A stretch of 64,000 nt of DNA from Gekko japonicus (lineage: Eukaryota): the NCBI RefSeq assembly GCF_001447785.1, contig NW_015175358.1:885546-949545 (forward strand), read 5' to 3'. This document shows positions 1,536 to 56,900 of the stretch, piece after piece. Under the pieces are notes generated by a model that was given only the letters and a program-made list of their open reading frames with translations, ran no database searches and was not told where the DNA came from. A program made the position numbers and the translations under genes. Positions within the stretch are counted from its first letter, which is position 1; every line of letters starts with the position of its first letter.

Positions 1536-2930
1536 TTAATATAGTTTTACGTTTTTGAAAGGGAGGAAGACTTTTTGAATGGGGTATTTTTTGGGTGATC
1601 AGCTGGTATTTATTAATTGGATCTTCTGCGGGTTTCGGCCCTGGGATTGGGGCCTTCTTCAGTTGTACAGTTTTATGGAGCAAATTGGCTTTTTTGTAAT
1701 ATAAATTGTCATTTTGATGTTTTCTGGTAGTAGTGGGGCTACCATACATCATGCAAGAGATCACGGAACCAGATCTTCTGTTCAGTGATCTCATGATTGT
1801 ATGTATGATATAGGGTAGCCTTGTTATTGCTGGAGTGTGTTAGAATGACAATTTATATGACGGGGGGTTGATTTGCTTTATAAGGCTGTATGCCGGGGGG
1901 GGGGGCAATCTTGGGGTCAAGACATGTTGTAGAGTTGATTGATAAATTCTGGCTGATTGCACAGAAGAGATCTTGTTCAGGAAGTTTTTTCCTCTCTCAA
2001 AAACGTATTAATTTTTTATCTTTAATACCTAAATAATTTTTAATTAATTTTTTAAATCATTATTTAGAAAATGTTTGTAATCTCTTATTTTCTAGCATTT
2101 ACTTTTATTTTCCTATTTTAATTTAAAACGTTCTGTTCTATGAGCCTTATTTGTCATTTTAAAACCCTTTTATTACGTAATTATTCCTGTGATTTTGTAA
2201 ACACATCCTTTATTATTTTTTAATAAAAATTAAAAGACAATATATTTTCAAATATTAAAAAGGCGTATATATTTTAATTTTTTCTGAGACCAGCTGATGT
2301 AATTTAAAACAGTAGGGGGCCTCTGGGTTTCGTATAGCTTAGGGCCTCAGCAAGTCTAAATCTGGCCCTGGCCCCACCTACCTCATAGAGTATCTTTTGT
2401 GGGGAGGGGAAGGTAAAGGAGATTGTACGCTGCTCTGAGAGACTGATTGAAAGGTGGGGTATAAATCCTATTTGAAGGGTGGACTCTATGGCACTGAACC
2501 CCACTCTCAGGTCCCTATCTTCCCCAGACTCCATCCCCAAATCTCCAGGAATTTCCCAACCTGGATCTGGCAACCCTACTAATTTCAGCCACAGTTCACC
2601 AAAAGAAAAAAAAACAATGACTGCTCTTGCTGCTGCTTCATCTGGTACTGCAGCAGCTCTTTTGACAAGAGGTAGAACTGCTCATTCTGTAATCAAAATT
2701 ACCATTAAATATTGTGAGAGCAGGGAGCTATGGGGCTGGCCAGCAAGCACCCCTCTTGTACAATAAACACCTTGTCTTCTTCCCATCTTTACAAAAGTCC
2801 TGTAAGGTAGACCAATATCATTATCCCCCACATTACAGATACATAACTGAGAGACAGATCAAGATGGGTAGCCGATTTAGTCTGTCTGTAGCAGTAAAAA
2901 AGAGCAAAAAAAAAGTCCAGCAGCATCTTA

Positions 2931-8600: not shown

Positions 8601-11600
8601 CAAGCGCTTTAACCTTTCCTCATAGGGAAAGTGTTCCAACCCTTTTATCATTCGAGTTGCACTTTCCAAAGCTATAATATCCTTTATAAGGTGTGGTGAC
8701 GAGAACTGCACACAGTATTCCAAATGAGGTCGCACCATTGATTTATGTAGGGGTATTATGATATTGGCTGATCTGTTTTCAATACCCTTCCTAATAATCC
8801 CACCAATAGCATTGGCCTTTTTTATTGCAGTCACACACTGTCTCGACATTTTCAGTGAGTTATCTACTACAACTTCAAGATCTCTCTCTTGTTCAGTCTC
8901 TGCCTGTTCAGACCCCATCAATGTGTATTTATACAGAAGGACTACCCCCTTCTGTACCATCCAGCCTGCTAGCTAAGCTACTTCTCACAAGACCTGCTGT
9001 CTGTGCTCCCACCAGCAGAGATGGGGCTTTTTTCAGTGGAGAAAACCTGTCTGTGAATGTCCTCCTTCTCAATGCTTGATTGGCATAAGAGTGCACTGTA
9101 AAGGGAATAATCCCCTAATGTCCTTAGAAGGATGCTTAAGATTGCAGTGTTAGGCACCAGGACAAAACATTTCTTTTTACCTAGGCTTTTAACTAAGGGG
9201 GTTGAGTTCTTAAAATTGTTCTTGAAATCTGTTTCTAGTCTGAGGATTGTTATAAGGATCATTTAGGCTGCTAAACATTTATTTATTTATTTATTCATTC
9301 ATTCATTCAATTTATTCCCCGCCAGAGCAGGCTGTGCTCTGAGTTTTTAATTGTTAATTTGAATTTTATCTTTTAATTTGTGAGTTGTCTCATGTAGGTC
9401 TTTGAAGGGGCAGTATATACATTTTCTAAATACGTATGGAATTTAAATACAGTGTTTTTCCACAAAGCATGCCGCCACCTCTTCCCCTCCGTTCTGTCCA
9501 TCTGTTCTCACATAAATTCTCCTAAGGAGAGAGCCACATGTGCCTCCCTGAGCAGCTTGGAGGAAGGACAGGATAGAAGTGTCATAGACATCAATTCTCT
9601 GAAGTCTACACATGCTAATAAAATGACTTTTAAAAAGCCCCCAAAACCTGTAATCAGGTGTTAGAAAAGCAAGTTGAACTAAGTCTCATCTCAAACTGTT
9701 TATGTCCTGCTTCTTGTATCTTGTTGCTGTGCAGCGTACAGAGCAAGAAAAAGAGCCTTTAGCGGGAAGTGACTGGTCTGATACGGAGGATGCAGAACCA
9801 TTGACTACCATCTCTCAAGAGGATTCTATCCCGGGTCACAATGCTTCTGGAACAAAAGACACTCCAGCATTGACCACAGAGGTCGTGATGTATCCTCCTC
9901 ACCTGTATGGTCATAAGATGAAAGACTATGCAAAATATTGGACAAAGACCCCCAAGCCAGAACATTGTAGTCCTTTTTCAAGCCCCTGTGAAGATACTCC
10001 ATTTGATAGTTCGTATTCTAGTCAGCTCTGTGACATTTCTTTAGATACCTCCGTTGCTATTTCATCGAATACCTCAAAGGATGAAGAATCGTCATTGGAA
10101 GAAGTGCGTCGTAGGCCACGTTCACTTGGTTCTTCACTGTTCTGTGAGAAGAAACATAGACGGCGAAGTATGGAAGCAGGACCATACATTCCTATTTTCT
10201 CCACACCAAGCAAATTGGATTCATCTGTTACTAACCCTGCAGGGCACAGTTTGCCTGATGACCTGCCCAGGTATTTAGAAGAAGGATTTATTGACACCCA
10301 CTGCCATCTGGACATGTTGTATTCAAAAATGGCTTTTAGGGGCACCTTTTCTAAATTTAGAATGGTTTATGATACCACCTTTCCTGAAGAATTTGAAGGC
10401 TGTATAGCTGACTTTTGTAATCCTCGTACCTTGAATGACTCCTTATGGGAAGATTTATTAAAGGAAGACAAGGTTTGGGGGGCATTTGGCTGTCATCCAC
10501 ACTTTGCACGCTATTACTCAGATCTTCATGAACGAAATCTCTTGCAGGCAATGAGGCACCCCAAAGCTATTGCCTTTGGAGAAATGGGACTGGATTACTC
10601 TTATAAATGTAGTACTGAAGTTCCAACTCAACACAAGGTAAAAGGCTTCTAGTTCTTTTGAGGCTGTTTTCTCTCTTGAATGTGAAACTTTCTTTTATTG
10701 TGGAAGAGATGCTGTAGCTTTGTAAAAAAAATTAGTTATGGAGCAGTCACATAGTTAGCCAGTTAGGATTATTAAATTTTATTTTGGAAAATACTTTGTC
10801 AAACTAGTGATCAATGTACAGGAAAAATGGATGGGTTGCTAAATAACTTTTGGGTGGTTATAAAATTTTGTTTTATATCCATATGATACTGTCTTGGGCA
10901 TTACCTCTGTTCCAACTGAAAACTACTTGTTAACAATACCTCAGCCTGATTTCATTGGTCTTCACAATTAGCTGTCCTCTAGTCCATTATAACCATTGAG
11001 CGGTGGCTCAAGTGGTTAAGACGCTGAACTGCAGGCTGTGGAAGGTCAGTAGTTCAGCAGTTCGTCCTGAGTTGCCGCATGACAGAGTGAGCTCCTGTCT
11101 CTAGTTCCAGCTCCTGCCAACCTAGCAGTTTGAAAGCAAGAAATTGCAAGTAGATAAATAGGTACCACTTCGGTGGGAAGGTAACAGCGTTCCGTGCGCC
11201 TTGGTGTTTAGTCATGCCGGCCACATGACCACGGAAATGTCTTTGAACTGCACTGGCTCTTTGGCTTTGAAACGGAGATGAGCACAGCAACTCTAGAGTT
11301 GGACTCGACTGGCTTTCGAGCAAGAGAACCTTTACCTTTACCTAGTCCATTATAAATTCTAGATGTCTGTTTAACACTTCTACTGCAAGTCCTGATTCAC
11401 TTATAAAACGTAAGTACAGCTGAGTGTCGCCAATGTTCTCATAGTTCCCTCTAAGCTGTGCTAGAGGGTGCTGACACACAAAATTTTAACAGGCAGTGCA
11501 GGGATTTCTGTTTCAGCTCACAGGGCATTTTTTCCCTCCATTGGAAACAATGGAAGACAGGAGCATCTCCTTTTGAGGATCATAGAATTGGACCCCCAGT

Positions 11601-14600
11601 CCAGTCTTTTTTAAACTGGGGGGGGGGTTAAGAAAAGGCACCAGCAGCTATGCTATAAATTTGGTACCTTTACCCCAAAAAACAGCCCCAGATCGATAAG
11701 AACCAGTTTGGTGTAGTGGTTAAGTGTGTGGACTCTAATCTGGGAGAACCGGGTTTGAGTCCCCACTCCTCCACTTGCACCTGCTGATGTGACCTTGGGT
11801 CAGTCACAAGCTCTGGCACAGCTGTCCTTGAAAAAGAACAGTTTGTGTCAGAGTTCTCTCAGCCCCACCCACCTCACAGGGTGTCTGTTGTGGGGAGGGG
11901 AAGGGAAAGGAGTTTGTAAGACGCTCTGAGACTCCAAGTGAAGGGCGGGGTATAAATCCAATCTCTCCTCTTCTTCTTCTCCACTATAGCCTATGGGGCC
12001 CATTGATTATAATGGTTTCCATATACTACAATGGAGCCGGAAAACATTTTTGTGTGTGTATGCACCCCTATTGTGCTTTTTAGTATAATTTGTAAGCTGC
12101 CTTGAGTCACAGAAAAAAGTAGGATATAAATATTTGAAAAAATAAGTAGTTTGGGCAGGCTGATAACATTTAAGTAACTTCCTGTTTGTTAGGTTAAACA
12201 GGGTTCTGACTGTGATTGTTCCTCCTCTGTTATACTTGACCTGTAATGCTGGTTGTCATATTTCACTAAAAAACCCAACAAAGTAGACTGCAAGAGTCCC
12301 CCTCTCCCCTAAGTGCTGGTATATTTTCTAAGGGACAGCACAAGGCAACAGTCCAAGCCAATGGCTACCAATATAGTGGAAAGGGGTGCGGAGTGGGTGA
12401 AATTTGACTTGATTCTGTTTTCTCTCATGTTTAAATTATTGTTAAAATATAATTTAAATATAAAAGAATTTATTCTGAGATTTTTTTCAAGGTTATGGAA
12501 GTAATCGCCTAATAAACTTATTTACACGATAGTCGAATGTAGACTTGCTCACAACCTTTGATGCTACTAGCTTTTTTCGCTCACGAGGTAGAATTTCTGC
12601 TCATAACACTTCGGCGCTTAGAGGGAACATTGGTTCTGACTCTCCATTTTAGTCCCAGAGTATGGATGAGAAGGACCCATGATAACAGCAGTCTTAGAGG
12701 TGCTATGTAAATATGAGTCCAGGTAATGCCTTCTGGGAATTCTGTGCGAGCTGTTTTGAATTCCATGACATAAGAAAAGTAGGAGATAAATGCAGTAAAC
12801 AAATCGCCAGACTATCACTTTACCTAGCAGTTTCATGTAGGTGCTGATATCATTGGGGGACAGTGCAGAACCATGTGGAATACCATAGCTCAAGTCCCCT
12901 ACCACCATTTTCTGGAATCCATCTGCTATTTTGGCCTGTGATTTCTGCCCACCCCCACCCCCCAGTCAAGCAGTCCAGAAGTGTCAAAGGTTGGAAGCTA
13001 AATTTTCTTGTGCAGCATCCTAGTGTTGGGTATAAAGCAAATGTGCTGAGAGTGGAACACTTGTTCTGCCTCTCCCATGTACGGTGCAGACCGGGCAGCT
13101 CAGTCAGTTTACTTCTTCAGTGCAACTGTTTTTGAAATAAATGCAATTTGTGCTGCTAGAGATCTTTTTGAGAATGGACTGTGTATAGCAGTGGTGTAAG
13201 TGGTAATCGCTGAACTTGGTGCTAGAATGACTGAAACACACGTCACCCCTCTGTTCTCAGGGCAGCTCTAATGGCATCTAAAGACATGCTTTCTTAATTC
13301 AGGTATTTGAAAGGCAGCTGAATCTAGCTGTATCCTTAAGGAAGCCATTGGTAATTCATTGCAGAGATGCTGATGATGATCTGCTGAAGATCATGAAAAA
13401 ATGTGTACCGAAAGACTACAAAATACACAGGTTAGTATACTAAATGCTAAGTTTTGTGCCTCTGTCATGGCTTTGTGACTGTGATTGCATCATTGCTTGT
13501 GTTTAGACTTGCATGGATACCAAGACTCTACAAGGGTGGGGGGATCTATTAAAATGATCTGCCCCTGGAGCCAGATGGATCCCAACAGCTTTCTGATGGC
13601 TCTACAGGATTTCCCTGTTGATATGGTTGGTGCCCTTGTTGATGCCCTGGTTGACCTCTGGAATGAGGAAATGAACCCAGCAGAACTCTGGGGGCCCTGC
13701 TTGGCAGTAAATGTAAGCAGATACAGAGGGAACATTAATCACTTAAGAGTTTTTAGGCCTTTAAAGAAGGTCACTTGCCTCCTGGTTCTTGAGCTTAGAG
13801 GAGCTTTTGTTTTGCTTCAGAATCATGTCTATGTGCCCTAGCAATGGATAGATAGCATGAAACAGCAAAGGTTGATCAGGTACGGTGCTATTAGTTTTCT
13901 CTGAGGCTTAATTTTTCTCTCATATTCTGAGAACGTTTTGCTAGTTTAAGATTAGTAATGAACTTTTGGACTAGGTGCAAGATAAGAAGAAGAAGAAGAG
14001 AAGAGATTGGATTTATACCCCGCCCTTCACTTGGAGTCTCAGAGCGGCTTACAAAGTCCTTTCCCTTCCCCTCCCCACAACAGACACCCTGTGAGGTGGG
14101 TGGGGCTGAGAGAACTCTGACACAAACTGTTCTTTTTCAAGGACAGCTGTGCCAGAGCTTGTGACTGACCCAAGGTCACAGCAGCAGGTGCAAGTGGAGG
14201 AGTGGGGACTCAAACCCGGTTCTCCCAGATTAGAGTCCACACACTTAACCACTACACCAAACTGGTGTAAAAGGAAGTAATAATATTTCAGAGAAGGATT
14301 GAAGAATCCAGTAATATTTATTGATACTGAATGACATTGAATTGATTCCCTAAAAACAACCAGTTTTAATTAAACCACCTACTTAATTTTTTACTGTAAT
14401 TCTAATTACTGTAATTTTACTGTAAAAATCAGCAATAACTGAAAGTTAATATATAGTATGAATGCTTGGAAAATCTCAGTGTCATCGAAGCCCGATTTTT
14501 AAATTCCGTATGTAAAGAGTTGAAATATAGTTTGCATTTCCTCATCTCCTTTTAGCCAGTCTCAGTTTTATACTGGGTATAAGTTTACAGGGGGGAAAAA

Positions 14601-16340
14601 AAACATAGGACAGCTATGTATTTACTTCTACCTTGCAGTATTGCCTTTAGCACAGCCTGCATTATTGCTTTTCTGCTGCTCACTGGTCTTATTATACTGC
14701 AGAATAACCATCACTTTCTCTTCTCCCTCAGGCATTGCTTTACTGGTAGATACAATGTAATAGAACCATTGCTGGACTACTTCCCAAACCTGACTGTAGG
14801 ATTCACTGCATTGCTGACTTATCCATCAGCAAATGAGGCTAGAGAAGCTGTTGAAAAAATTCCTTTAAGCAGAATAGTAGTAGAAACAGATGCACCTTAT
14901 TTCCTTCCCAGGCAGGTAAGATAGTTCTTGGGGTGTACCCCCACTTCTTTTTAGTTCTCGCTTTATTATGTTTGTTTTATCCTGCCCAAATAGAAGTCCT
15001 TTCCTTTTCTTGTGAAAGTTACCTCTTTAAGTCTTTGAAGGTTTTGGGATGGAATGGGTTGTATAATACTAGCAAATATAAAAATGCAACGGTCACACAA
15101 CTGACTTCTCTTATACACTTCTACTTATTTGAGTTTCATTGTCATGGGGTGTTCTGAGCATCTGGTTTAATGAGTCTGAAAAGGTTACATAAATTCATGG
15201 AGAATACTTTAAAACTAATAATACAGCTATACTCTGCACAGTGGCAGTGTTGTGCCATTTACTCTCGGCAGGTTGCACTCAGGTCTTTGTGTGTAACAGG
15301 TGTTCTAGAGAAGTGTCGAAAATAACATTTTTGGAGTGGTACAGGTATAGCAGTAAAGTGAGAACAACAGGGGAAACAGTTTGGTAACAATAATGGGGGA
15401 TGCTTCTTGGCACTGGGAAGTGGGACTATAGTGGCCGTGTAACCTTGATTAGAGCATGAAACCCTTTCGGTTGAATGAGAAATGGGGAAAGCTAAAGGCT
15501 TCAGGTAAGTGTAATATAATGAATTTAGGCCAATAGTTACCAGTTGCTTACTAGTCTCTTGATATAAAGAAGATGTTGGGGAAATGAGAGATAATACATC
15601 CTAGCTGCTTTTAAAAAGATTTCCTTGTAAGGAAAAGGGCAAATTAACCTACCCTGGCAAATTCTCCCCTCGCCCCTTTTCTCATAGAGGGTGAAAAAAA
15701 AATCTTGTTTATTAATGCATTTGCTTCACTAATCAAGAGATGATGAAATAACCATCAAGTTATTCTTGATTTTCTGAACGTCAGAAGCTGTGAGTAAATC
15801 AAAGAGGATCAATAAATCAGAGTTCAAGTCCAGTGGTACCTTCAAGACCAACAACGTTTTATTCTGGGTATAAGCTTTTGTGTATCTGAAGAAGTGTGCC
15901 ATGCACATGAAAACCTATACCCAGAATAAAACTTTGTTCTGTTAAAGGCGCCACTGGGCTCAAACTTGGTTCTGCTGCTTCAGACCAACACAGCTACCCA
16001 CCTGGATCGGTTAATCAGTTAGCAGTTGCTCTTTGTTTCATTTGTATTGTCTTCAGTGTGTCTGTTAAAATTGCCCACAATGTATGTAGTGCAAGGTGAG
16101 GGAAGTTTTTGTTATGTTAATTCTCAACCGTAGTTCTAATTCTGAATTGTACAGAATAAAGTAACTGATATTACTTCTAAGGCTTCTGGTTTTCTTTAGG
16201 TTCCGAAAAGTGTGTGTCAGTATTCACACCCAGGAGTTGCTCTGCACACAGTGAGAGAACTTGCCCGCCTCAAGGAAGTGCCATTATCCATTATGTTGGC
16301 TGCTCTAAGACGAAACACCAAAAAAATATATGACTTGTAA
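5239..16340 (+). CDS. TATDN2: TatD DNase domain-containing protein 2, spliced CDS 2778 nt / 925 aa
   Basis: Exons 5239-5607, 6322-7374, 9735-10637, 13303-13430, 14732-14915, 16200-16340; all GT-AG with consistent phase. TatD motifs [40 protein letters not shown]; long Ser/charged N-terminus; neighbours GHRL and SEC13 as in other amniotes. Confidence 0.95.
6322..7374 (+). CDS. TATDN2: TATDN2 coding exon 2 (gene exon 3; disordered, repeat-containing)
   Basis: Acceptor tttag, open 351 codons incl. [14 protein letters not shown], donor AAG|GTGAGG. Confidence 0.85.
8073..8932 (-). mobile_element. CR1 LINE 3' fragment
   Basis: [37 protein letters not shown] motifs; (TTCTTATG)n tail. Confidence 0.92.
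9735..10637 (+). CDS. TATDN2: TATDN2 coding exon 3 (start of TatD domain)
   Basis: gcag acceptor; [34 protein letters not shown]; donor AAG|GTAAAA. Confidence 0.95.
10999..11343 (+). mobile_element. Sauria SINE
   Basis: Same family as 2931; TSD TAGTCCATTATAA; ACCTTT tail. Confidence 0.85.
11701..11981 (+). mobile_element. tRNA-derived SINE with L2-like 3' end
   Basis: A box TGGTGTAGTGG, B-box-like GGTTTGAGTCCC, (TCT)n tail; repeated at 13985, 54459, 59065. Confidence 0.85.
13303..13430 (+). CDS. TATDN2: TATDN2 coding exon 4 ([27 protein letters not shown]...)
   Basis: ttcag acceptor, donor AG|GTTAGT, TatD motif PLVIHCR. Confidence 0.95.
13985..14265 (-). mobile_element. tRNA-derived SINE, inverted near-identical copy of 11701
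   Basis: About 4 mismatches over ~280 nt by manual comparison. Confidence 0.85.
14732..14915 (+). CDS. TATDN2: TATDN2 coding exon 5 (HCFTG...[11 protein letters not shown])
   Basis: Polypyrimidine+cag acceptor, donor CAG|GTAAGA. Confidence 0.95.
15818..16008. repeat. Penelope-derived palindromic repeat with decayed hammerhead core
   Basis: Inverted arms TTTTATTCTGGGTATA / TATACCCAGAATAAAA around CTGAAGA-A-GTGTGC..GCACAT-GAAA; relatives at ~2860-3430, ~22550-22690, ~41612-41740. Confidence 0.65.
16200..16340 (+). CDS. TATDN2: TATDN2 last coding exon ([12 protein letters not shown]...NTKKIYDL*)
   Basis: tttctttag acceptor; TAA 16338-16340; candidate AATAAA at ~17534. Confidence 0.93.
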   Translation, partial: VPKSVCQYSHPGVALHTVRELARLKEVPLSIMLAALRRNTKKIYDL

Positions 16341-35100: not shown

Positions 35101-38100
35101 AGTACATGGGGAAAGAGGATAAAGAAAATCTAGAGAAAGCTCCTTAAAAAATCCCTCCCATCTATTTCAGTTCCCATCTATTTCATCTATTTCTCAGCCA
35201 AGTGCTTTAGTTTTCCCTTTTCCCTTTTCCCCTTTCTCATCAGTTCCTTTGTGGAACCACTGTTCCTTGAAAGATGAAGGTGCTATCACCTCTGCCATCT
35301 AAATCTTCATCTGCATTTCATCCTGAATTTGCATTTATTTTATTTATTTATTTAATTAATTTTATTTATACCCCGCCCTCCCCGCGAACGGGCTCAGGGT
35401 GGCTTACAGACGGCACAACAGTGCATATAATATATAAATTAGATAAAACAGGTAAAATTCAATATTATCAGATACAAGATAAAACTCCCCTATCTCTTAC
35501 AAGCAGAAGGGGAGGACTAGGGCCGTAGATGGATGTTACCTGGCCCTCCGGCGGTATCGCTCTTGTGCTGGAGCAGTGGTGGTAGTGGTAGTGGCAGTGG
35601 CGGCTCCTACTCGAAGGCCTGGCGGAAGAGCTCCATCTTACAGGCCCTGCGGAACTGCATGAGGTCCCGCAGGGCCCTGATCTCCTCTGGGAGCTCATTC
35701 CACCAGATAGGAGCCGCCACTGAAAAGGACTTGGCCCTCGTTGCCGCAAGCCTGGCCTCCTTGGGGCCCGGGGTCACCAGCCGGTGTTGTGACCCTGACC
35801 GAAGTGCTCTTTGGGGAATATGTGGGGAAATGCGGTCCCTCAGGTATGTTGGACCCTGGCCATGTAGGGCTTTAAAGGTAAGCACCAGCACTTTGCAGCG
35901 AATCCGGTATGCTATAGGGAGCCAGTGCTGCGCTTTCAGTACAGGTCGGGTGTGCTCCCACCTAGGGGCGCCCACCAGCAGCCTGGCCGCAGCATTCTGC
36001 ACCAGCTGTAGCTTCCGGATTTGCGACAGAGGCAGCCCCATGTAGAGAGCGTTACAGTAGTCTAACCTCGAGGTGACCGTCGCATGGATCACTGTGGCCA
36101 TGTCGTTGCGGTCGAGGAAAGGTACCAAATGCCATACCAGCCGAAGATGATAAAAGGCTGATCTGGCAGTGGCTGCCACCTGGGCCTCCATTGTTAAGGA
36201 GGGGTCCAGGAGCACTCCTAAACTCCTAACCTCCGAACCTGACACCAAAGGCGCCCCATCTAAGGTCGGAAGCAGGAGCCCTAACCTCGATCCGGTCCGA
36301 CTAAAGCACAGGACCTCTGTCTTCGCCGGGTTTAATTTCAGCCTGCTCTGTCTGAGCCACCCAGCCACGGCATGTAAAGCCCGGTGCAGATCTTCTGGGT
36401 TGGAGTCCGACTGGCCACCCAACATCAAATAGAGCTGGGTGTCATCTGCATATTGATGACACCCTAGCCCATACCTCCAGGCAATCTGGGCGAGGGGGCG
36501 CATATATATGTTAAACAGCATTGGGGAAAGCACCGCCCCCTGAGGCACCCCACATTCCAGTGGGTGCCTCTGGGACTAGCACTACCCTCTGTCCCCGACC
36601 TTGGAGAAATGAGGCAAGCCATTGAAGGGCAAGCTCCTGGATCCCCACGTTGACGAGGCGGCGGGACAGCAGCTGATGGTCAACCGTATCAAAAGCGGCC
36701 GACAGATCTAACAACAACAGCGCCGCCACACTGCCTCGATCCAGATACCTACGGAGGTCATCAGTCATGGCAACCAGTGCTGTCTCCGTCCCATATCCCG
36801 GGCGAAAACCAGACTGGAATGGGTCAAGGACAGAAGCGTCATCCAGATAGCCCTGCAGCTGAATCGCCACCCACTAGTCGCCACCCACTAGTGCCCTCAG
36901 TGCAAACAACATTCAATGAGTTGCAAAACCTACAGATCGCTTTTAAGCTTCCTTTACTCAGACAGAAAACATACACAAGGTTCCATTTAAGGCATCTTCG
37001 ATAAATAGCTTCCACGGAACTGATACTTGGGTACAGAACAAAATTGTAAATAAAACCAAAACAAAGTGTAACAGCAGTGCCAACTGAGCCTTCAACAACA
37101 TATTAAGCTAGTTATTGTGTGGATAACCAAAAACTGAAAGTGGGGGATACAGCAAAGGATCTTCTTGCCTTGAATTCACTCACCCTCTTAAGTCAGCTAT
37201 CAGAATTTGCCCTCCATTCCTGACATCAAATATTTTCACTGATCTGTCCGAGGAGCAGGTTGCCAACCGAGTGCCGTAATAATCCATCTGCGCATCATGC
37301 TGGAAAGTAGTTACAAAGCTTTCATGATTCCCTGTTAACTCTCATTTCACTCATACTAAGGGTTTTTTAAAAAAATCCTGATGTGTCAAATGACACCAGC
37401 TACAGTAGGATGGCAAAGGGTGGTTCATTAAAATAGATTATAGTTATTATTGCTATTATCATATGGCAGTGTGTGTAGGAAATCCTAAGATTGTCTGGCA
37501 GCCAGAAGTTCTAGCTCTTTTAGTGTTATGCACTACTAGGTGTCGAGCTAGACTTGTTTTTAAGGCAAAAGACATTCCAGAGGTGGTTTGCCACTGCCTG
37601 CCTCTACGTCACGACCCTGGTATTCCTTGGAGGTCACCCTTCCAAATATTATCCAAGGCCCACCCTGCTTAACTTCCGAGATCTGACGAGGTCAGGATAG
37701 CCTGTACTATCCAGGTCAGGGCATTGTTTATAGTATTTTATGGTAGAAGAATCTATAGGCTACACTACACTATGATGACAATCAGTACTGTAGCAGACTG
37801 TCCCACAAGACAAAATCTTAAGTAGGGATGACAACTGGGAAGACAAGCAAAACCAGGCTAGGGCCCCCAACTATCCTATCACCCCGTCTCCCATGGTCAG
37901 GGAGGGGGGTGTACTTGAAATTTGAAGTATTTTAGAATTATTACTGAGGAAATAATGTTTAATTCCCCCTTGTTGCTAGTTTTTAAAAAAACCACTGCAT
38001 TAGATACTATTTTGGTGGGGCATGGCCAGGCAGACAGCAGTAATGTAGAATACAGTGTAGAATCCGATAGTTTGCAGATAGACTGATGGTCAGAACAACC

Positions 38101-41100
38101 AAGCTACTCAGCAGTTATCCAGAAGGCACATATTGCTTGTTCTGACACCAGCTCATTACATGATATAAACACAGTGCTAAAGAACATCACTTATACAAGT
38201 CCAATTGATGCAAAGGACAACTCAGACCACAAATGCCAGTTATTTCAGTGCAGATGTTTCAAGTGGATTATGCCTTCTAGGTTTTTTTTAAAAAAAAAAT
38301 TATTTCCCCCACTATTTGAGTCAGCCCGGCTATTGTTATTCTTATACAGCAACAAGAAAGTCCAGTGACAATTTAAAGACTAACAAAAATTTATTCTAGC
38401 ATTAACTGGATAACTCAGCAGTTATCCAGAAGGCACATATCGCTTGTTCTGACACCAGCTCATTACATGATATAAACACAGTGCTAAAGAACATCACTTA
38501 TACAAGTCCAATTGATGCAAAGGACAACTCAGACCACAAATGCCAGTTATTTCAGTGCAGATGTTTCAAGTGGATTATGCCTTCTAGGTTTTAAAAATAA
38601 AATAAAATATTTCCCCCACTATTTGAGTCAGCCCGGCTATTGTTATTCTTATACAGCAACAAGAAAGTCCAGTGACAATTTAAAGACTAACAAAAATTTA
38701 TTCTAGCATTAGCATTTGTGTGTCAGAGTTTACTTCATCAGATGCCTGGAGGGTATATCCATAGCAGCAGTTAATAGTTTAATTCTCCTCCTCCAACATG
38801 CTCCTGGTTTATAAGAAATGGAGAAAAGTTACTAGAGCCCGTCCCAGATCTTTAAACAGTTCTGGCTTATAGATGCAAAAAAAATTCAAAGAGGCAGAAA
38901 ACCTCTGAATAGCAGTGGCAGGAGAAAACATTAGGCCTCTCCTTTTGTTCTTAAATACATAGAGATCCAAAGCCCCCTAGTAGACAATGGATGGCTCTAA
39001 GGGTGCTCATCAATTCACACTCTGCTTCTTAGAATCAACCAAGACATCCCTCCCTCTGAAAACACACACAGCACCACTGCTATTTCTCCTCTCTTCCTTC
39101 ATAGTGGCAAGGAGTACTTGGCAGACAGGTATTTTAAGGGTCATACACATTATAAATTCCACACTTTTAAGGGAGAAAAAATTCTTATGGGGGGGGGACA
39201 TATATCGGATACTTACTATCATGTCCTCATGGGAGGTATCCACTGTATTAATCACAGACACCTAATAATAAAATACTTTGTTAGAAATTGTGAAATCAGT
39301 TAACAGACTCCACACCAGTGTTCCCTCTAAGATGAGTTAGTGTAAGCTAGTTCAGTTTTTTAGCCTCTGGCTCTCACATTTTTGTTTTAGCTCGGGAAGG
39401 ATGGCTCCACGGCAAACTAATTTATGCAGTAGCCAAACGCTCTCTCACAACTTTAATGCCAGTAGCTCACAAAGTAGAATTTTTGCTCACAAGACTCCAC
39501 AGTTTAGAGGGAACATTGCTCCACACCAAGATTTTAATCTAGTGGTAAATTGAGTCATCATATTTTGTTTAAAAACTTTACATATGGCACCTGACTGTGA
39601 GGGAAAGAAAGATGTTAAAGTTGGTACATCTTTGATCAGATCTAGTATTATCTTCATGTTTTTATTCTGCTGCTGCTACAGTTCTTAATTCTAGATCTTC
39701 CTCATTTACCATTACTTCTGGCATCCCAGTAATAATGCCACTCGTTCTAAATGTAAATTATACCATCTGTAATATCTTTAATCAAAAGAACACATATCTT
39801 CTTTGCTTTGCAAATCAGTACAGGACAAGCTATCCCAGGGCAAATGCAGGCAGCAGAGAAGACACCTCAGTAGTGCATAAGGGGCAAGAGACCACTCAAT
39901 GATCCTTAGTGCAAGCAGCAGGGGTCGTTTCGTAGAAAAAGAGCTAGGGGAACTCATTAGCATAACTTATTAGCATATGCTACACCCCCTGGCATCACCG
40001 GAAGTGTGTCATAAGGCCACACCCCTGACATCACCGGAAGTGTGTCATAAGGCCACACACCCCGCCCCCAACAGTCCCGGCCGCCGCCGGCCTTGCAGCT
40101 CCACTGCCGAGCCCCATGAGGGGCCCGGCGGTGGACCTGCAAGGCCGGCGGGAGTGCAAGGAAGCCCCGCAAAGGCCCTCCCTGGCCCCAGGCAGGCAGG
40201 GGTGGGGAGAGGCAGGGAGGAAGCAACTTACCCTCCCTCTTCTCCTGCCTCCTCCTGGCTGAATGAGGGCCGGAAGCGGGGCGGCCGGAACCAGGGGACG
40301 GGGCTTCGTCATGTGCCCCGCCCCACGTACCTCACCCAGGGGAACTCCCCCGCGATCCCCCCCGAAATGACCTCTGGCAAGCAGAGCTGCTTATCTTCCA
40401 CCTGCCATGCTGGCTTGTTTGAAACAGTTAATATTAACAAACTGTAGAGCATTATATTTTCCCACAATATATCTTTAAACATCCTGCACTGTTTTAAAGG
40501 CAGATGGATAAAGTCTTTAGTTATTTGTAACTGGGAGGAGTGAATACAGAGAATCCTTGGTATATGAGGAACATTTTCATCTATTGACCAGTGAAGAGAA
40601 AGCAGGGTTGCCAGCTGTTGTTTGGGAAATTCCTGGAAACTTTGGGGGTGGAGCCTAGGGAGGGAAGTTTTGGTGAAGGGGAGGGACTTCAGTGGAGTGT
40701 AATGCCATAGAGTCTACCTTCCAAAGCAGCCATTTTCTCCAGGAGAAATTATTTCTGTTACCTGGAGACCAGTTGTAATTCTGAGAAACCTCCAGCCACC
40801 ACCTGGAGACTGGCAACCCTAAGAGAACGAGATAGAGGTACAAGAGCATTCCTGTCTTCACTTGTGAAATGTTGGAGAGGGCATGTTGACGTGGCTATGC
40901 TGGCCAGGTTTAGGAAAAGGGCAGAGGTTGGAAATGGGCATGCATGGAGAATTTGCAACTATGGGGGGGGGGGGAGTAATCCAGTCCCCTTTACAGAGAA
41001 TTAATGTGCAGATTGCAGAAACAGGCAGCTGAAGCTTTTGATGGCCTGGAGGTTGGTAACCTCATCTGGTAAATACGATCTTATTACGCCTCTATTAAAG

Positions 41101-44912: not shown

Positions 44913-44980
44913 ATGACTAACATATCCTATCACATTTCCAACCTCCTGGAGAAGATGACATCCACCGACAAAGATTTTAG
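44913..44980 (+). CDS. CAND2: CAND2 exon 1
   Basis: 68 nt, [23 protein letters not shown], donor AG|GTAGGA. Confidence 0.93.
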
Positions 44981-47900
44981 GTAGGATCTACACTTCCCTT
45001 GGGTTGGGGTGTGGGTGTGGGGTGAATTGCAGAACCATGTTTGGAGATTTAGGGGATGCCCCCATCGGTGAATTGCACACGTGTGTGATTCACAAGCCTT
45101 TGGGATGTTGGGAGATTTATGGAGGACGAGGGGGGAGATTTTTTTTTTATAGCTGCAGCAAAACAACAACAATCACCTGGATCCAGCCAAAACCCCTGTA
45201 ATGAAGAAGAGAAGGCTAACCAAGGAGGATCACTAGCTATAGTCTATACAAAATCTCACCTCCCCCTGCAGGAGATGTTATACAGAGCCAACAAGCCAGA
45301 TATGTAATGTACTGCAAGCTTCCGGGGCGGGAAGGAGAATACTACATCCTACAGTTTCTCTTGCGGCCCCTCAATAGCTAACATTCTGATATCCTTTTAT
45401 GTCCCTCCTCCGAGACTGAGATAGAGATGCACTGCTAGACAGCTGCAGTTGGGGGGGGGGGAGGAATCTTCCTAATCAGCTGTTATTGGCTGGGAGATGA
45501 TTGGCTGCCTTCACTGTCTTGTCTGAAGAAAAACAAATGTGATCTCCAGTCTCCTTAGAGTACCGCACAGCTGGGGAGTAATAGTCACTTGTCCACTGGC
45601 TTGTTTGTGCTGTCAAGTGAACCAAATTGGAGTTTAACTGTTGCTGAACAAAGATGCGTTTTACATAATTCTCTGAAGTGACAAGCAAAAATGAGCCGCA
45701 GATTAAATATGGGGGGCGTGTTTTGATGGTGTGACCAAACAAAAGAGGAAAAAATCAGCCACCAAATAAGTGAAAGTGGATTTGTGGGTCAGTTAACAGA
45801 ACATTTAAAACAGAGTACATAGCATACATAGTACACATAGGAGCTGCGGTGGCTCAAGTGGTTAAGATGCTGAACTGCAGGCTGTGGAAGGTCAGTAGTT
45901 CAGCAGTTCGAGACCCGAGTGTGCCGCATGATGGAGTGAGCTCCCATCTCTAGTTCCAGCTCCTGCCAACCTAGCAGTTTGAAAGCAAGAAATTGCAAGT
46001 AGATAAATAGGTACCACTTCGGTGGGAAGGTAACAGCGTTTCGTGCGCCTTGGTGTTTAGTCATGCCGGCCACATGACTATGGAAACGTCTTCGGACAGC
46101 ACTGGCTCTTCGGCTTTGAAACGGAGATGAGCACCGCAACCCTAGAGTTGGACTCGACTGGCTTTCGAGCAAGGGAACCTTTACCTTTACATAGCATTGC
46201 TGGAACCAGCTGAGTTGGCATCCCAGCATGTTAAGGGGACGGAAATCAGGTTAATTTCAGTAAAAGATGAGGCCTAAACTGGCTTAAACGGAGGCAACTG
46301 GGACTTTAGCTTATTTATGTTTATGGAATGGACTGTTACCAGATCATATAGTTGATAACTGGTAAGGAAATTCCTGGAGATTTGGGGGGTGGAGCCTGTG
46401 GAGGGCAGAATTTGGGGAAGGGAGAGAGCTCGGCAGCAATGTGATGCCAGTCCAACATCCAAAGCTGTCATTTTCTCCAGAAGAAGGGATCTCTGTGGTC
46501 TGGAGCTCAGTCATAATTCTGGGAGAACTCCAGGCCCCACCTGGAGATTGACAACCCTGCAGGAGACCCAAAATATAGTTCTGCATCTGGGAGTTAGTTA
46601 TGCTGCAGATATCAGTAGGGCTGTAAAAGAATTTGTTTTGGGCTGTGAATTTGGGAATGTTTAATATGGAGCAAAAATATTTATACCCCACCTTAACCTC
46701 TTGGCTCAAGGCAGCTTACAGGTAATGATAGAAAACAAAATAAAAATCCCAAATACCACCTCCCCCTCTGCAAGATGCCTCCTTGTTCATACCCCATCAG
46801 AAGCCCTGGCAAACAAATAAGCCTTGCAGTGTTTCCTGAACATCTCAAATAAGGGGGCGCCCCCTCATCTCTTTAGGGAGCCCATTCCAGAGTGGGGTCA
46901 TGATGCAAAAGGCCCACGCTCTGGTTAGAGTTGGGAAATACCTGGAGATTTGGGGGGTGGATCCTGAGGAGGGTGGGGTTTGGGAAGGGGGCAGGGACTT
47001 CAATGGGGTCTAATGCCATAGAGTCCACCTTCCAAAGTGGCCATTTTCTCCAAGTGAACTGATCTCTGTCACCTGGATATCAGTTTTTAATAGTGGGAAA
47101 TCTCCAGCTACCACCCATAGGTTGGCATCCCTAGCTGTGGTTCATGCCAGGCTGGCCACCCTAAGTGAGGAGACAGCCAGTAGGTGACAGCCTGAGTTGG
47201 CACTCAGGACCACATGGGAGGACATGGTCCTTCAGATGTGTGGGCCCTAGGCCATGAAGGGCTTTAAAGGTCGTAACCAGCACCTTGAATTGATGGAAAT
47301 AAAATGGCAGCAATGTAGATGTTTCAAGATGGGCAAGGTACATTCCCATTGGCTAGGCCCCTGACTAAGGTTGCCAGCTCTGGGCTTGAAAATACTTGGA
47401 CATTTGGAGGGTGGAGGTGAATCCTGGGGAGGGCAGGGACTGGGAAGGGGAGGGGCCTCAGCAGGTTATATTGTCATAGAGTTCATCCTCCAAAGCAACC
47501 ATTTTCTCCAAATAAACTGATCTGTCATAATGGTGGGAAATCTCCAGCCACCAATTTGAGATTGGTAACCCTAGTCCTGACAGTAATCACACTGCCGCAT
47601 TCTGGACCAGCTACCGTTTCTGGGTTGGTTCCGAGGGCAGCTCAACACAGAGCACATAACAGTAACCCAACTGTGAATTTACAGAAGTGTGGATTGGCAT
47701 AGCCAGATCAGCCGAGTCCAAGAAAGGAGAGAACCGGTGAACCAGAAGGCGCTCTTGGCCACTGCACGTGTAGTGCTTTTTAAACAGCAAGTCCTAGGGT
47801 TGCCAGGTCATGCCTGGAAATCAGTGGGAGCTTTGGGTGCAGGGAGCTTTGGGGGCACAGTGCAGTGTGTGCCTCACATTAGTTCTGGGGGAAACCTAGA

Positions 47901-50900
47901 GGTGACGCTGGGTAGCTCTAGGATATGCCAGTGATTCCTGCAGCAATCCAATGTCACTTTCGGGTTTCCCCTGGCAGTGATGTCATAGCACATGCAATGC
48001 CAACCAATTTTTAAAAAATCTCTCTGTGGCAAGCTATGAGGGCTGCTGGTGGGAACATAAACATGCCCAGGCTCTTAACCTGCTCTGCAAAAGCCAGTTC
48101 TGCTCCATTCAGGATATGCTGCTGGAGCTATGTTTTTTTGTGATTTTATTGTCTTCCCTTTGCCTGTTGCCATTTTCTTAGCTACTTTTCTCCATTTGAA
48201 GCAAGACAGGAAGTGGATGAAAGTGCCACTGCACATTAGAACAGTACGGTTGAAATTATGCAGAGTTAAAATTTTGGTTAGCTTGCCCTGCTCCCTATGC
48301 AGTTATTTTATTTTACATTGTTCATCTAGATGCCTTACTATAACTAATTCCCCCCTAACCAAGTAGAATATTCTGTCCCAACCCTTCAGGCTAACATTAA
48401 CCCTTAGCTGGAAGCTCTGGATTCCTTAGCATCTGAGTTCGCTATCTATTAGCAACTCTCCTCCCCCTCCTCACTCTGAATCATATGCTAGTCATACTAA
48501 ACAAAGATAAACAGTGTATTAAAAGCTGCTCTCTGGAAGCATAATATCCCTAGTGGGGTTAGAAATGATGCAGCTTGGGAGTTGCTGTTCTGTGTACAGC
48601 AGTGAACTGTAGAATGATACATATTGATGTTACATTGGCCCTGATAAGGTGATTGCAGAGGTCATTTCGGGGGGGATCGCAGTCCCCCCGGGTGAGGTAC
48701 GGGGGCGGGGCACATGACGAAGCCCCGCCCCCTGCTTCCGGCCGCCCCGCTTCCGGCCCTCATTCAGCCAGGAGGAGGCAGGAGAAGAGGGAAGGTAAGT
48801 TGCTTCCTCCCTGCCTCTCCCCACCCCTGCCTGCCTGGGGCCAGGGAGGGCCTTTGCGGGGCTTCCTTGCACTCCCGCCGGCCTTGCAGGTCCACCGCCA
48901 GGCCCCTCATGGGGCTCGGCAGTGGAGCTCCAAGGCCGGCAGCGGCGGCCGGGACCGTTGGGGGCGGGGTGTGTGGCCTTATGACACACTTCCGGTGATG
49001 TCAGGGGGTGTGACATATGCTAATGAGTTATGCTAATGAGTTCCCCTAGCTCTTTTTCTATGAAACGACCCCATGGTGATTGTACTTGTGTAATCTTAGG
49101 ACCTAAACTGGAAGGTACATATTGGCAATATTACTTTCTCCAATATATGTAACTGCCACTGACACAAGGCCAGGTACATTTGTGGCCTCACGTATCTTTT
49201 TGTGCCATTCAATTCCAGATTGGAACATTCCTGTTTGGGTCCTATATCAATTGTTCACTGCCTCACAAGTGTAATAGGGGCTTTGTTGTATGTTATATTC
49301 TGTACTATTTGACCTCTGAAGACGGCTGGTTTGGGCCGAAACATGTCAGGTCATATATGATTCCTGTTGTGTCTGTTGTGGGGAGGGAAAGGGAAAGGAG
49401 ATTGTAAGCTGCTCTTGAGACTCCTTTGTGTAGTGAAGGGCAGGGTATAAATCCAATCTCTTCTCTTCTTCATTTCCGTACACCCTGTATTTAATCTCTG
49501 TATTAAAGGGTTACTCTTTACTCATTTAGCTGCTGGACAATTTATGAATTGGTTAGTGTCAGTGAAGATTTGTTGCTTTTTACATTCTGGAGCTATGAAT
49601 TTTCATCTTCTGTGTGGCTGCCAGTGGCTGTAATTTGAATTTCTGAGCCCAGCCTATTGTTGGCATTCATTCCTTCTTCTCAGGTTTATGGCTACCAATG
49701 ACCTGATGATGGAACTGCAGAAGGATTCCATAAAGTTAGATGAAGACAGTGAGAAAAAAGTTGTGAAAATGCTGCTGAAGTTGCTGGAGGACAAAAACGG
49801 GGAGGTGCAGAACCTGGCTGTCAAATGGTAAGGCTTCCCCTGCATCAATCATAATGCTTAATAATGGAGACAAATCTTTAAAGTATCCGAAAGTGGGGCT
49901 TCCGATGCTGGGCCCTGACTGTTTTCTTTCTCGTGAGCTTCTTCTGTTTCACACACTACAAAGTCAATGTGTAGGTTATGACTTTTGTCTTCTGGCTTAA
50001 TCGACAGGCAGAATTCTTTGGTGGGGGTGGCTAGTGGAGGATGATTACAAACCGTGATGGAAGTTTGTGTGTGTGTATGTTCACATGTGCATTTATGTGC
50101 CTGCATGTTCATCCAATAGGGCCCTCGTGTTTGTCGCATACAGCCAGGAAGGAGCCACATGGAAAATGAAGGAAAAATATTTGACTCTGGAGATAGCATT
50201 GGAAACTGTTTAGATTCCCCTTTGTAGCTCAGCCGACATGCTATTGCAAAGCAATAGACAGTGGGAAGTGTGTATACCCACTCCGTTTACTTGATCTGTT
50301 ATCTCACAAGGCTTCCTCTTGGCTGAGACAACTAAAGGTCTAGTCATACCTCAAACATTGATGTATTATGACTGTTTGCGAACTAGAACTCCCATGAAGT
50401 ACCTGGTACAAGCCAGAATGAAGAGTAACTGGAAGAGAAAGGGGTTTCTGCAAATTTCCTTCATTACTGCTATCTACCAGGCTCTGCCAAGGAAAGTTGC
50501 TGTGAAATAGTTTTTCCTTTATGTGTAACTTTTGCTTCTTGCAGCTTGGGCCCTTTGGTGAGCAAAGTGAAAGAATATCAGGTGGAAACCATTGTTGATA
50601 CGCTATGTACAAACATGCTATCCGATAAGGAACAGCTCCGGGACATCTCCAGTATTGGGCTGAAGACAGTGATTTCAGAGCTGCCGCCTCCATCCACTGG
50701 TAAAAAAGTAACCCTCTTTGTTTACATAATGAAGAGGAATTCCAGAACCAAAGCCATGTAGTACCTTTTATGAGGACTGGTCAAATTATCATAAAATACT
50801 GTGAAAGCCTTCATATTCTCTAGAATTTTTCGTCAGGCTGGATATTTGGAGGATGGGGTGGGGCGGGGGGAAGGAAAAACCCGCTTTTCCCCATGTGTGA

Positions 50901-53900: not shown

Positions 53901-56900
53901 TTTTTCCCCTTCCATTGACATGTCTGGTTTTATGCGCTCCAGTACTTGTTTGTTTGTCACCTTTGCTGTTCAAGGGGCTGTTAGTAGGGTCAGGTTCCCA
54001 ATAGGCTAGTAGGAAAGAAAGAACTAGAAGCGGTTCAGAAACGATGTGAGTAATCATTCGAGTGTCAGACTGGGACCTGGATTCAAATCCCTAGTTAGTC
54101 ACAAAGCTTACTGGGTAACCTTGGGACATTCCTCTGTCTTAGCTTGTCTCAGAGGGCTATGATGGAAAAATGAAGGAGGCAAGAACACTATGTATACCTA
54201 CTTATCTTGTCCTCTCTCCAAGGAGCTTGGGGCAGCATACATAGATCTCTTCCCACCTCTTTTGTCCTCCCAGCACCTTTGTGAGATAGGTAAGGTAATA
54301 TGACTAGCCCAAGGTCCCCAGTGAGCTTTATGGCTGAGTACGGACTTAAAGCCAAGCATCTGTGGCCTTAGTCCAGCACTCTAAACACTATACCACACTG
54401 GCTCACCATGGATACTATCCTGAACTCCTCAGAGAAAAAGTGGAATGAAAATGTGATAGCCAGTTTGGTGTAGTGGTTAAGTGCGCGGACTCTAATCTGA
54501 GAGAACCGGGTTTGATTCCCCACTCCTCCACTTGCACCTGGGTGGATTACCTTGGGCAAGCCATAATTCTGGCACAGCTGTTCTTGAAAAAGAGCAGTTT
54601 CTGTCAAGAGCTCTCTCATCCCCACCTACCTCACAGGGTGTCTGTTGTGGGGAGGGGAAGGGAAAGGAGTTTGTAAGCCGCTCCGAGACTCCTTCGGGTA
54701 GTGAAGGGCGGGGTAGAAATCCAGTCTCCTCCTCCTAGATGGATAAACAACATTCTCAGGCCACTGGAAGTTCTGCCCACTATTTTTTTCTGAGTCTCCA
54801 GCAACCATTGTCAATGTGTTTTATTTATTTATTTGGGAGACTCTTATACTACCTCTCCAGAATCCTGCTGGAGACAGCTTATAAATAATATCATCATAAA
54901 TTATCAATATAAACAAGCCACCAATATAAGCAAGCCATTAAAACCAGTTTTCCGTATGTTTTGAAACCGCAAGGCCCAATCTTCATGTTGTGTCCAGAAA
55001 TGCCCAGTTACCACCCACTGTGAATAATCTTCATCTTGCGCCATCACCAGCTGGAGTTGCTTGTTTTTTCCCTGATAATCACTGGAAGGCAAATCTTTGC
55101 CTAACCTTTGTTCCTGCCCATAGGCTCCACCATGACAGCCAATGTGTGCAAAAAGATCACAGCCCAGCTGACTGGAGCCGTTGGGAAGCAAGAAGATGTG
55201 TCTGTGCAGCTGGAGGCTCTTGACATCTTGTCAGATATTTTGAGCAGGTACCAAAAGAGTGCTGTGAAACAGATTGCGTGAGCGGCTTAGCAGACCAAAC
55301 TTCGTTTTACTTTTAGAGTCATCATTCTGCATTGTTTCTGCACAACCCAAGATGAATCACTCATACTAAATATCTGAACCTCTCAGAAGAATATTAATGG
55401 ATTGCTTTTAATAACCTTAGAGGCAAATTATATGTTGTAGGTTTGACCTGTGGTCGCCAAGGTCATTTTACAGAAGAAGTTGGGGGGAAATGCTTCAAGG
55501 AGGGCCCACAGCACAGGGGACCAGGAAATTCTCCCCCTCCTATGCACCCTTTCAAATGCTGAAACAGCCTGTTTGGGTAGTTGAAAAGGTACAGGGGGGG
55601 GCAAGTTTGCCTGGTCCCCTTTGCTGTGGGCCCACATTGCGGTATTTTTTCAGTGCTCAAATTCTTCTGTAAAATGGTGGTGGCAGCCATGATTCAAAAC
55701 TGTGGCCACTGGACATAAGAACATAAGAGACGCCAATGTTGGATCAGGCCAAAGGCCCATCCAGTCCAACACTCTGTCACACAGTGGCCAAAGATATCAG
55801 GTGCCATCAGGAGGTCCACCAGTGGGGCCAGGACATTAGAAGTCCTCCCACTGTTGCCCCCCCCCAAGCACCAAGAAGACAGAGCATCACTTGCCCCAGA
55901 GCCTCTATCTATACCTTGTGGCTAATAGCCACCGATGGACCTCTGCTCCATATGTTTATCTAATTCCCTTTTGAAGCCATCCATGCTTGTAGCCGCCACC
56001 ACTTCCTGTGGCAGTGAATTCCATGTGTTAATCACTCTTTGGGTGAAGAAGTACTTCCTTTTATCTGTTCTAACCCGACCGCTCAGCAATTTCATGGAGT
56101 GCCCACGAGTTCTTGTATTGTGAGAAAGGGAGAAAAGTACCTCTTTCTCTACCTGCTCTTTCCCATGCATAATCTTATAAACCTCAATCATGTCACCCCT
56201 CAGTCGTCTTTTCTCCAAGCTAAAGAGCCCTAAGCGCTTTAACCTTTCCTCATAGGGAAAGTGTTCCAACCCTTTTATCGTTAGAGTTGCCCTTTTCTGC
56301 ACTTTTTCCAAAGCTGTAATATCCTTTTTAAGGTGTGGTGACCAGAACTGCACACAGTATTCCAAATGAGGTCGCACCATTGATTTATATAAGGGCATTA
56401 TGATATTGGCTGATCTGTTTTCAATACCCTTCCTAATAATCCCCAGCATAGCATTCGCCTTCTTTATTGCAGTCACACACTGTCTCGACATTTTCAGTGA
56501 GTTATCTACGACAACTCCAAGATCTCTCTCTTGATCAGTCTCTGCCAGTTCAGACCCCATCAACGTGTGTTTATATTTAGGATTTTTGGCTCCAATATGC
56601 ATCGCCTTGCACTTGGCCACATTGAACCCCATTTGCCATGTTGACGCCCACTCGCCCATCCTTGACAGATCCCTTTGGAGTGCCTCACAATCCTCACTGG
56701 TTTTCACCACCCTGAACAACTTCGTATCATCCGCAAATTTAGCCACTTCACTGCCTACTCCCAACTCCAAATCATTAATGAACAAGTTAAAAAGCAGTGC
56801 TCCAAGTACTGTAAACATGTAGTTTGGCCCTTATTCTTAAAATCTGCATTGCTAGAAGATGTGTAAACTAAGAACACAAAAGCCCTGCTGGATGAGACTA

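Follow-up and report, generated by a model that had tools for sequence, protein, structure and literature searches.

The window, by which we mean the whole 64-kb stretch of DNA analysed (64,000 nucleotides), contains two exons of a CAND-family gene and the intron between them.

44913..44980, + strand, coding part of exon 1 of CAND (likely CAND2), 68 nt; intron 1 starts with GT at 44981
44981..49683, + strand, CAND intron 1, GT..AG
49684..49827, + strand, CAND exon 2, 144 nt, RNA depth about 5-6

Amniote CAND1 is nearly invariant. The exons in the window carry many changes relative to it, and a TatD-domain gene lies upstream; CAND2 was judged the likely family member for these two reasons. The upstream gene is presumably TATDN2, which we take to share one human chromosome band with CAND2. 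A preliminary description of this DNA had named the site as CAND2 intron 1. The CAND family and intron 1 stood, whereas CAND2 is likely only, as both tested exons scored higher against human CAND1 than against human CAND2 (73.8 vs 71.2 bits for one, 136.4 vs 95.2 bits for the other).

Exons encoding the TatD DNase domain were located at 9678-10652 and 14583-14924 (+). Two full SINE copies, inverted and 2 kb apart in the region of this gene (11702-11980 and 13988-14266), are 99% identical, compared with 82-91% for other SINE copies, which suggests a recent conversion or the end of an inversion. The window also holds two LINE-type reverse transcriptase fragments (35607-36873 and 55922-56830, - strand) and a head-to-tail duplication of about 300 nt (97%; 38106-38404 and 38413-38711).

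Sequence inspection and a pair-by-pair check identified a type I hammerhead motif at 49310-49353, in sense orientation within CAND intron 1. Its parts are as follows.

49310..49315, + strand, stem I, 5' strand, reaching 49306 across one mismatch
49316..49322, + strand, core C3 to A9, CUGAAGA (CTGAAGA)
49323, + strand, extra nucleotide between A9 and G10.1, a C
49324..49337, + strand, stem II with a 6-nt loop; GGCT/GGCC at 49324-27/49334-37, 4 bp (three G-C, one U-G)
49338..49341, + strand, core G12 A13 A14 A15.1 (GAAA)
49341..49346, + strand, palindromic stem III ACAUGU (ACATGT); no stable closure in a single molecule, 6 bp when two molecules pair
49347, + strand, C17, with cleavage predicted 3' of it from the sequence and the established hammerhead numbering
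49348..49353, + strand, stem I, 3' strand, reaching 49357

Six Watson-Crick pairs (49310-15/49348-53) form stem I, and three A-U pairs (49306-08/49355-57) follow beyond a U-U mismatch. The ends of the hammerhead meet in this stem (6 + 3 pairs), which defines the type I topology. The G10.1-C11.1 pair is present as G49324-C49337. By established convention C17 is the cleavage-site base, and the predicted cut site at 49347 lies 336 nt upstream of the exon 2 acceptor. The preliminary description had listed stem I, CTGAAGA, the extra nucleotide, stem II and its loop, GAAA, ACATGT and GUC, and all of them were found at the positions given there. It had also placed the motif in sense orientation in intron 1, about 330 nt upstream of the acceptor, in agreement with the exon/intron borders, and its claim that all catalytic bases are retained was confirmed by the complete core. 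The term "intact", used there for the whole motif, fits the core but not the remainder, in which one stem II pair is lost and 4 of 44 positions are off the family majority.

We evaluated whether the motif exceeds chance. A structure-aware descriptor matched once on both strands of the 64-kb window, at 49310-49353. Descriptor matches occurred in 4 of 300 dinucleotide shuffles when at least four stem I and three stem II pairs were demanded, in 2 of 300 at minima of five and three, and in 0 of 300 at minima of six and four, the last being the level of the motif itself. The match frequency thus differs from that in shuffled sequence, the comparison that the preliminary description had set as a possible refutation. 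Descriptor and Infernal-type searches, also proposed there, gave this single strict match on the one hand, but no Rfam hammerhead match on the other.

A chance look-alike within ordinary intron DNA would agree with three null results. A sequence-only hammerhead pattern was not enriched in the window (18 matches vs 11.0 expected; 11 of 100 shuffles reached 18), the folding energy of the hammerhead region was unremarkable (z -0.18), and Rfam returned no hammerhead match for the motif at the gathering score or up to E 10. These nulls probably arise because the motif has almost no stem III. Against chance, no shuffle at matched stringency contained a match, and genomic read depth places the motif in a multi-copy repeat family. 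In addition, among 59 distinct flank pairs of metagenome loci with the same core, 28 form a stem I of at least four pairs, compared with 6.9 (maximum 16) in 5000 partner shuffles, none of which reached 28, the loci being counted irrespective of their relatedness. Chance was accordingly refuted by the shuffle counts, the metagenome flank pairing and the multi-copy read depth, and we assign it practically no probability. The hammerhead motif is beyond chance and genuine in structure.

We placed reads and contigs of four runs on 49040-49880 at 80% likeness. The motif was found to belong to a dispersed repeat enclosed by two other insertions.

48656..49074, strand not assigned, DNA-transposon-like insertion, GC-rich and non-autonomous, bounded by terminal inverted repeats; read depth near 17,000 over 49040-49068
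49089..49365 (ends approximate), + strand, dispersed repeat with the hammerhead at its 3' end, from genomic read depth
49369..49475, + strand, 5'-truncated 3' tail of a tRNA-derived SINE, abutting the repeat; five other copies in the window, 79-89%

Genomic read depth was 131-282 over 49098-49358, compared with 0-1 in unique intron. The copy-number check suggested in the preliminary description therefore revealed a multi-copy family, with roughly 100-365 copies as a lower bound calculated from read depth for an assumed genome of 1.5-2.5 Gb. In organisms B and C, the listed contig pieces begin at 49089, extend to 49358-49376 and differ in 10-17% of letters. The hammerhead thus lies at the 3' end of a dispersed repeat about 280 nt long (49089 to about 49365), which is likely a Penelope pseudo-LTR or retrozyme-type remnant. 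Within it, a 20-nt inverted repeat (85%; 49097-49116 and 49225-49244) could be a stem of the RNA of the repeat family.

The 3' flank of the hammerhead repeat is cut off by the SINE tail. Read depth over the tail was 65,000-105,000, loose read ends before 49369 ran on into the SINE body, and the DNA 3' of the tail is unique. The tail is likely Squam3B-type, judged by the description in PMC7983390, and by the same description the SINEs indicate a squamate host, likely a gecko. The orthologous contigs from organism B (49448-49880, 27 other letters) and organism C (49459-49880, 21 other letters) both stop inside the SINE tail, so the tail is likely common to them. In thousands of reads, the end of the tail is joined to its beginning (49464 to 49369 in about 4,500 DNA reads). 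The SINE 3' part forms tandem arrays elsewhere in the genome, comparable to the Squam3-derived gecko satellites described in PMC10702118.

On the other side of the repeat, the DNA-transposon-like insertion is flanked by an 8-nt direct repeat (48648-48655 and 49075-49082). An inverted copy lies at about 39921-40324, and the pair is 94-98% identical. We take this insertion (48656-49074) to be hAT-like. The hammerhead repeat may continue upstream beyond it.

To describe the drift of this copy, we compared it with the majority of its family. Among the 40 of 142 differences listed, four fall within the 44 positions of 49310-49353, all outside the core, and the core, the palindrome and stem I are unchanged. 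At 49323 this copy has C, where A stands in 248 of 255 DNA reads and 250 of 255 RNA reads. The family majority is C at 49328 (151/181 reads), T at 49329 (152/181) and G at 49331 (137/181). By eye, the family C at 49328 extends stem II to five pairs and shortens its loop to 4 nt, and the fifth pair is lost here. At 6-10% divergence from the family majority, an estimate from the cleanest reads, the 13-base core would be expected to survive by chance alone in 25-45% of copies, and a set of 37 chosen positions to be wholly unchanged in 2-10%. The intact core is no sign of selection, because the family has hundreds of copies and an intact one was picked by the reader.

The extra C at 49323 is predicted by the folding model to pair with G12 (49338; P 0.86-0.97), and C at this position is described as strongly detrimental in a viroid hammerhead (PMC3705267). 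The published Penelope-type consensus allows C there (H; PMC4209133), and C occurs in element-associated rows from Drosophila virilis and lamprey in the supplement alignment of the same paper. G12 pairing of the extra base is predicted for U variants as well (median 0.72, n=107). As U variants pair too and C is found in element-associated rows, the C-G12 pair was rejected as sole proof of inactivity.

We then compared the motif with the published minimal hammerhead of Penelope-like elements (CUGANGAH, G10.1-C11.1, GAAA, palindromic stem III, UH; Cervera and de la Pena 2014, PMC4209133). It has the traits of this type, namely the core CUGANGA/GAAA/UH, an H at the extra position, G10.1-C11.1, a short palindrome, type I topology and membership in a multi-copy family. 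It also shares the U-rich 5' flank and the dispersed solo copies within a repeat family, and such pseudo-LTR hammerheads, including small-palindrome variants (Lunse et al. 2016, as cited in PMC6765202), are known in reptiles. The palindrome here has 6 nt, as in the D. virilis variant, whereas most vertebrate rows have 4 nt. Further differences from the Penelope type are the 4-bp stem II, the lack of an adjoining RT/GIY-YIG frame and the 3' flank cut by the SINE tail. Poseidon of Anolis carolinensis (PMC11167929) has a like layout, a squamate type I hammerhead of the form CCU-CUGA.GA-N-G...C-GAAAC..GUC-AGG. As described there, its palindrome has 4 nt and the hammerhead overlaps the start codon of an intact frame, whereas the gecko copy is solo, non-coding and of another family.

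Searches for coding remnants of the source element were carried out in the window and at metagenome loci. Neither tblastn with 120 proteins nor an HMM built from 28 of them detected a Penelope-type RT or GIY-YIG remnant in the window, or any match near 49 kb, the queries being distant, insect-type relatives. At least 106 metagenome stretches contain the core pattern, viral contigs gave 0 matches to it, and AATAAA or ATTAAA lay within 40 nt downstream in 51 of 110 metagenome matches. A clear Penelope-type frame was present in one of the 106 loci (L002, the source of the query), whose relatives carry RT and PF26215 domains. The 11 other tblastn-positive loci (of 12 among the 106) were discounted, as most of their matches were to end pieces of P0038/P0041 and the HMM of 28 confirmed L002 only. 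Pfam detected no RT or GIY-YIG family in 82 of the 169 same-strand frames of 85 aa or more from these loci, and in blastn of 49073-49370 against them the core matched and nothing else. The case for a Penelope origin therefore depends on agreement with the published consensus, as the window has no coding remnant and a single metagenome locus carries such a frame. The source is likely a Penelope-like retroelement or its non-coding derivative, judged from sequence. Of the Penelope pseudo-LTR remnant proposed in the preliminary description, the consensus fit, the palindromic stem III and a dispersed repeat of pseudo-LTR size were upheld; no coding remnant was found in the window, and the pseudo-LTR identity is putative.

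Seven metagenome loci (L012, L022, L028, L058, L071, L097 and L105) each contain two or three hammerheads of the same family, spaced by 60-500 nt and including at least one in opposite orientation. Closely spaced hammerheads with an opposite-strand copy are described for Penelope insertions (PMC4209133).

The repeat might instead be a monomer from a family of non-coding non-LTR retrozymes and not a truncated autonomous Penelope, a reading that concerns origin only and is compatible with a silent remnant. Animal non-LTR retrozymes (PMC7229834; bioRxiv 10.64898/2026.07.22.740005) are likewise non-coding, a few hundred bases long and dispersed as monomers with one type I hammerhead, many of them intronic, which agrees with the length of about 280 nt and with the missing coding remnant in the window. 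According to the preprint (bioRxiv 10.64898/2026.07.22.740005), they occur in 4 of 5 reptiles as dispersed monomers, and 42-44% of the Xenopus copies lie in introns. However, retrozymes form tandem arrays; here the hammerhead is solo, no tandem unit is present in the window, and no end-to-start joint of the repeat appeared among the 15 of 176 joints listed, from a library unsuited to circular RNA. The preprint derives retrozymes from pseudo-LTRs in any case. We regard a retrozyme monomer as a close alternative origin, though the less likely one.

Cleavage prospects were estimated from folding calculations, whose nearest-neighbour energies take no account of Mg2+, tertiary contacts or proteins. 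The window contains no second copy of the hammerhead, and the ACAUGU palindrome occurs once in intron 1. In the monomer, forcing the A15.1-U16.1 pair costs 5.3 kcal/mol (-12.0 to -6.7). In five wider contexts the folding model gave stem I a pairing probability of 0.01-0.38, and stem I lost to a hairpin covering the cut site. For a homodimer, energy evaluation gave -30.0 kcal/mol for the cutting form, -29.0 for two monomers and -40.3 for a misfolded dimer, and the cutting dimer is thus predicted to be barely stable. According to PMC4209133, a single Penelope-type motif showed no detectable cleavage and dimers little. The anole Poseidon hammerhead is reported not to cleave without the protein of the element, with no RNA-seq reads ending at the site (PMC11167929), and slow intronic ribozymes are described as having no effect on splicing (PMC10919898, citing Fong 2009). 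The preliminary description had suggested that the pre-mRNA could be cut if the hammerhead dimerises. This suggestion found no support: there is no partner copy in the window, the cutting dimer is predicted to gain only about 1 kcal/mol over two monomers and to be about 10 kcal/mol less stable than the misfolded form, four changes have accumulated outside the core, and chance accounts for an intact core in a quarter to nearly half of all copies.

RNA evidence came from one run, of which 3% was read. Depth was about 5-6 on exon 2 and 0 on unique intron. No pile-up of read ends was detected at any place in 49040-49880, a weak test in unstranded, fragmented cDNA. RNA reads on the repeat carry the family alleles (250/255 at 49323), so they derive from other loci. 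The RNA/DNA depth ratio was 0.25-1.06 over the repeat, compared with 0.07-0.17 on the SINE and DNA-transposon bins, in RNA and DNA runs of different samples and read lengths. These data suggest that the repeat family is transcribed from other loci. RNA reads were more uniform for family-majority letters than DNA reads (84/87 vs 116/181 at 49136), as if the transcribed subfamily were homogeneous, perhaps young.

We conclude that the locus very probably holds a single dispersed-repeat copy that has drifted; it carries a type I hammerhead, is likely of Penelope-like source and is likely silent in CAND intron 1. Silence is expected because stem III forms only when two copies pair, and none is nearby. 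In the parent element, a single transcript is described to carry two copies that swap strands; six pairs then form between the palindromes, and cleavage occurs at both cores (PMC4209133, PMC6765202). The two pseudo-LTR hammerheads of its transcript would pair through ACAUGU (6 bp), each core cutting after GUC. A truncated copy would have been inserted in CAND intron 1, the SINE tail and the DNA transposon would have inserted beside or into it, and the hammerhead copy would then have drifted neutrally. Most Penelope-type motifs are single, probably truncated copies, with thousands of solo copies per genome (PMC4209133). In the CAND pre-mRNA, the sense transcript would stay an open monomer or adopt a competing hairpin, and the polymerase would reach exon 2 within seconds, after which the intron would be spliced out.

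Two functional readings were weighed against a silent copy. Transcripts of the family, or a protein of the element, might occasionally activate the hammerhead in trans, a small share of CAND pre-mRNA being cut when the element is expressed. The apparent transcription of the family elsewhere (RNA/DNA ratio and family alleles in RNA, as above) speaks for this, as do the palindrome, with no majority change among the 40 of 142 differences listed, and the protein-assisted cleavage known for the anole element (PMC11167929). However, the palindrome duplex is calculated at only -4.6 kcal/mol and the homodimer, the dimer form covered by the calculation, is barely favoured; the intron is short-lived, with exon 2 depth about 5-6 and no pile-up of ends in the weak RNA test; and the RNA and DNA depths come from different samples and read lengths. 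We consider such activation unlikely. That an expressed Penelope-type family might switch on scattered solo hammerheads in trans, as a network of conditional intronic cut sites in host pre-mRNAs, is a highly speculative extension of it. The other functional reading is domestication to regulate the splicing or the level of CAND, comparable to the amniote intronic hammerheads and the CPEB3 ribozyme. The hammerheads of RECK, C10orf118 and DTNB (PMC6155905, PMC10761166) are likewise type I and lie in gene introns, and the sense orientation, the 336 nt to the acceptor, the intact core and published precedents (PMC6155905, PMC10919898) would be in keeping with such a role. Those hammerheads are described as conserved across large clades and cleaving; the gecko one is a copy of a multi-copy repeat with no stable stem III and no Rfam family match. 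Its drift weakens stem II instead of strengthening the monomer, and the acceptor is transcribed about 5-6 s after the site at 3.5-4.1 kb/min, a mammalian figure. Domestication is thus very improbable, and a silent, drifted copy is retained as our explanation.

As it stands, the locus matters little, since this kind of motif is very abundant: about 4,000 are described in coelacanth and 9,000 in Xenopus, and fish, amphibians and reptiles hold thousands (PMC4209133). Many Penelope-type motifs lie in introns. Our literature search found no paper combining CAND2 with a ribozyme and one that brings Penelope, squamates and hammerheads together; the CAND-intron locus is likely unreported, and the repeat family perhaps so, whereas the kind of hammerhead is well known. 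If solo copies can be activated in trans, each copy lying sense in an intron would become a site of conditional cutting. The apparent transcription of the family opens this idea to testing, for which the drifted gecko copy is a poor test case.

A decayed second hammerhead-like motif, of another family, was observed at 1620-1662 (- strand). It has CTGAAGA, an extra A, a 5-bp G-C stem II, GAAAC and AATAAA soon after, while its stem I and UH site are broken. A looser descriptor, written after the motif had been seen, matched it once in the window and matched 0 of 300 mononucleotide shuffles.
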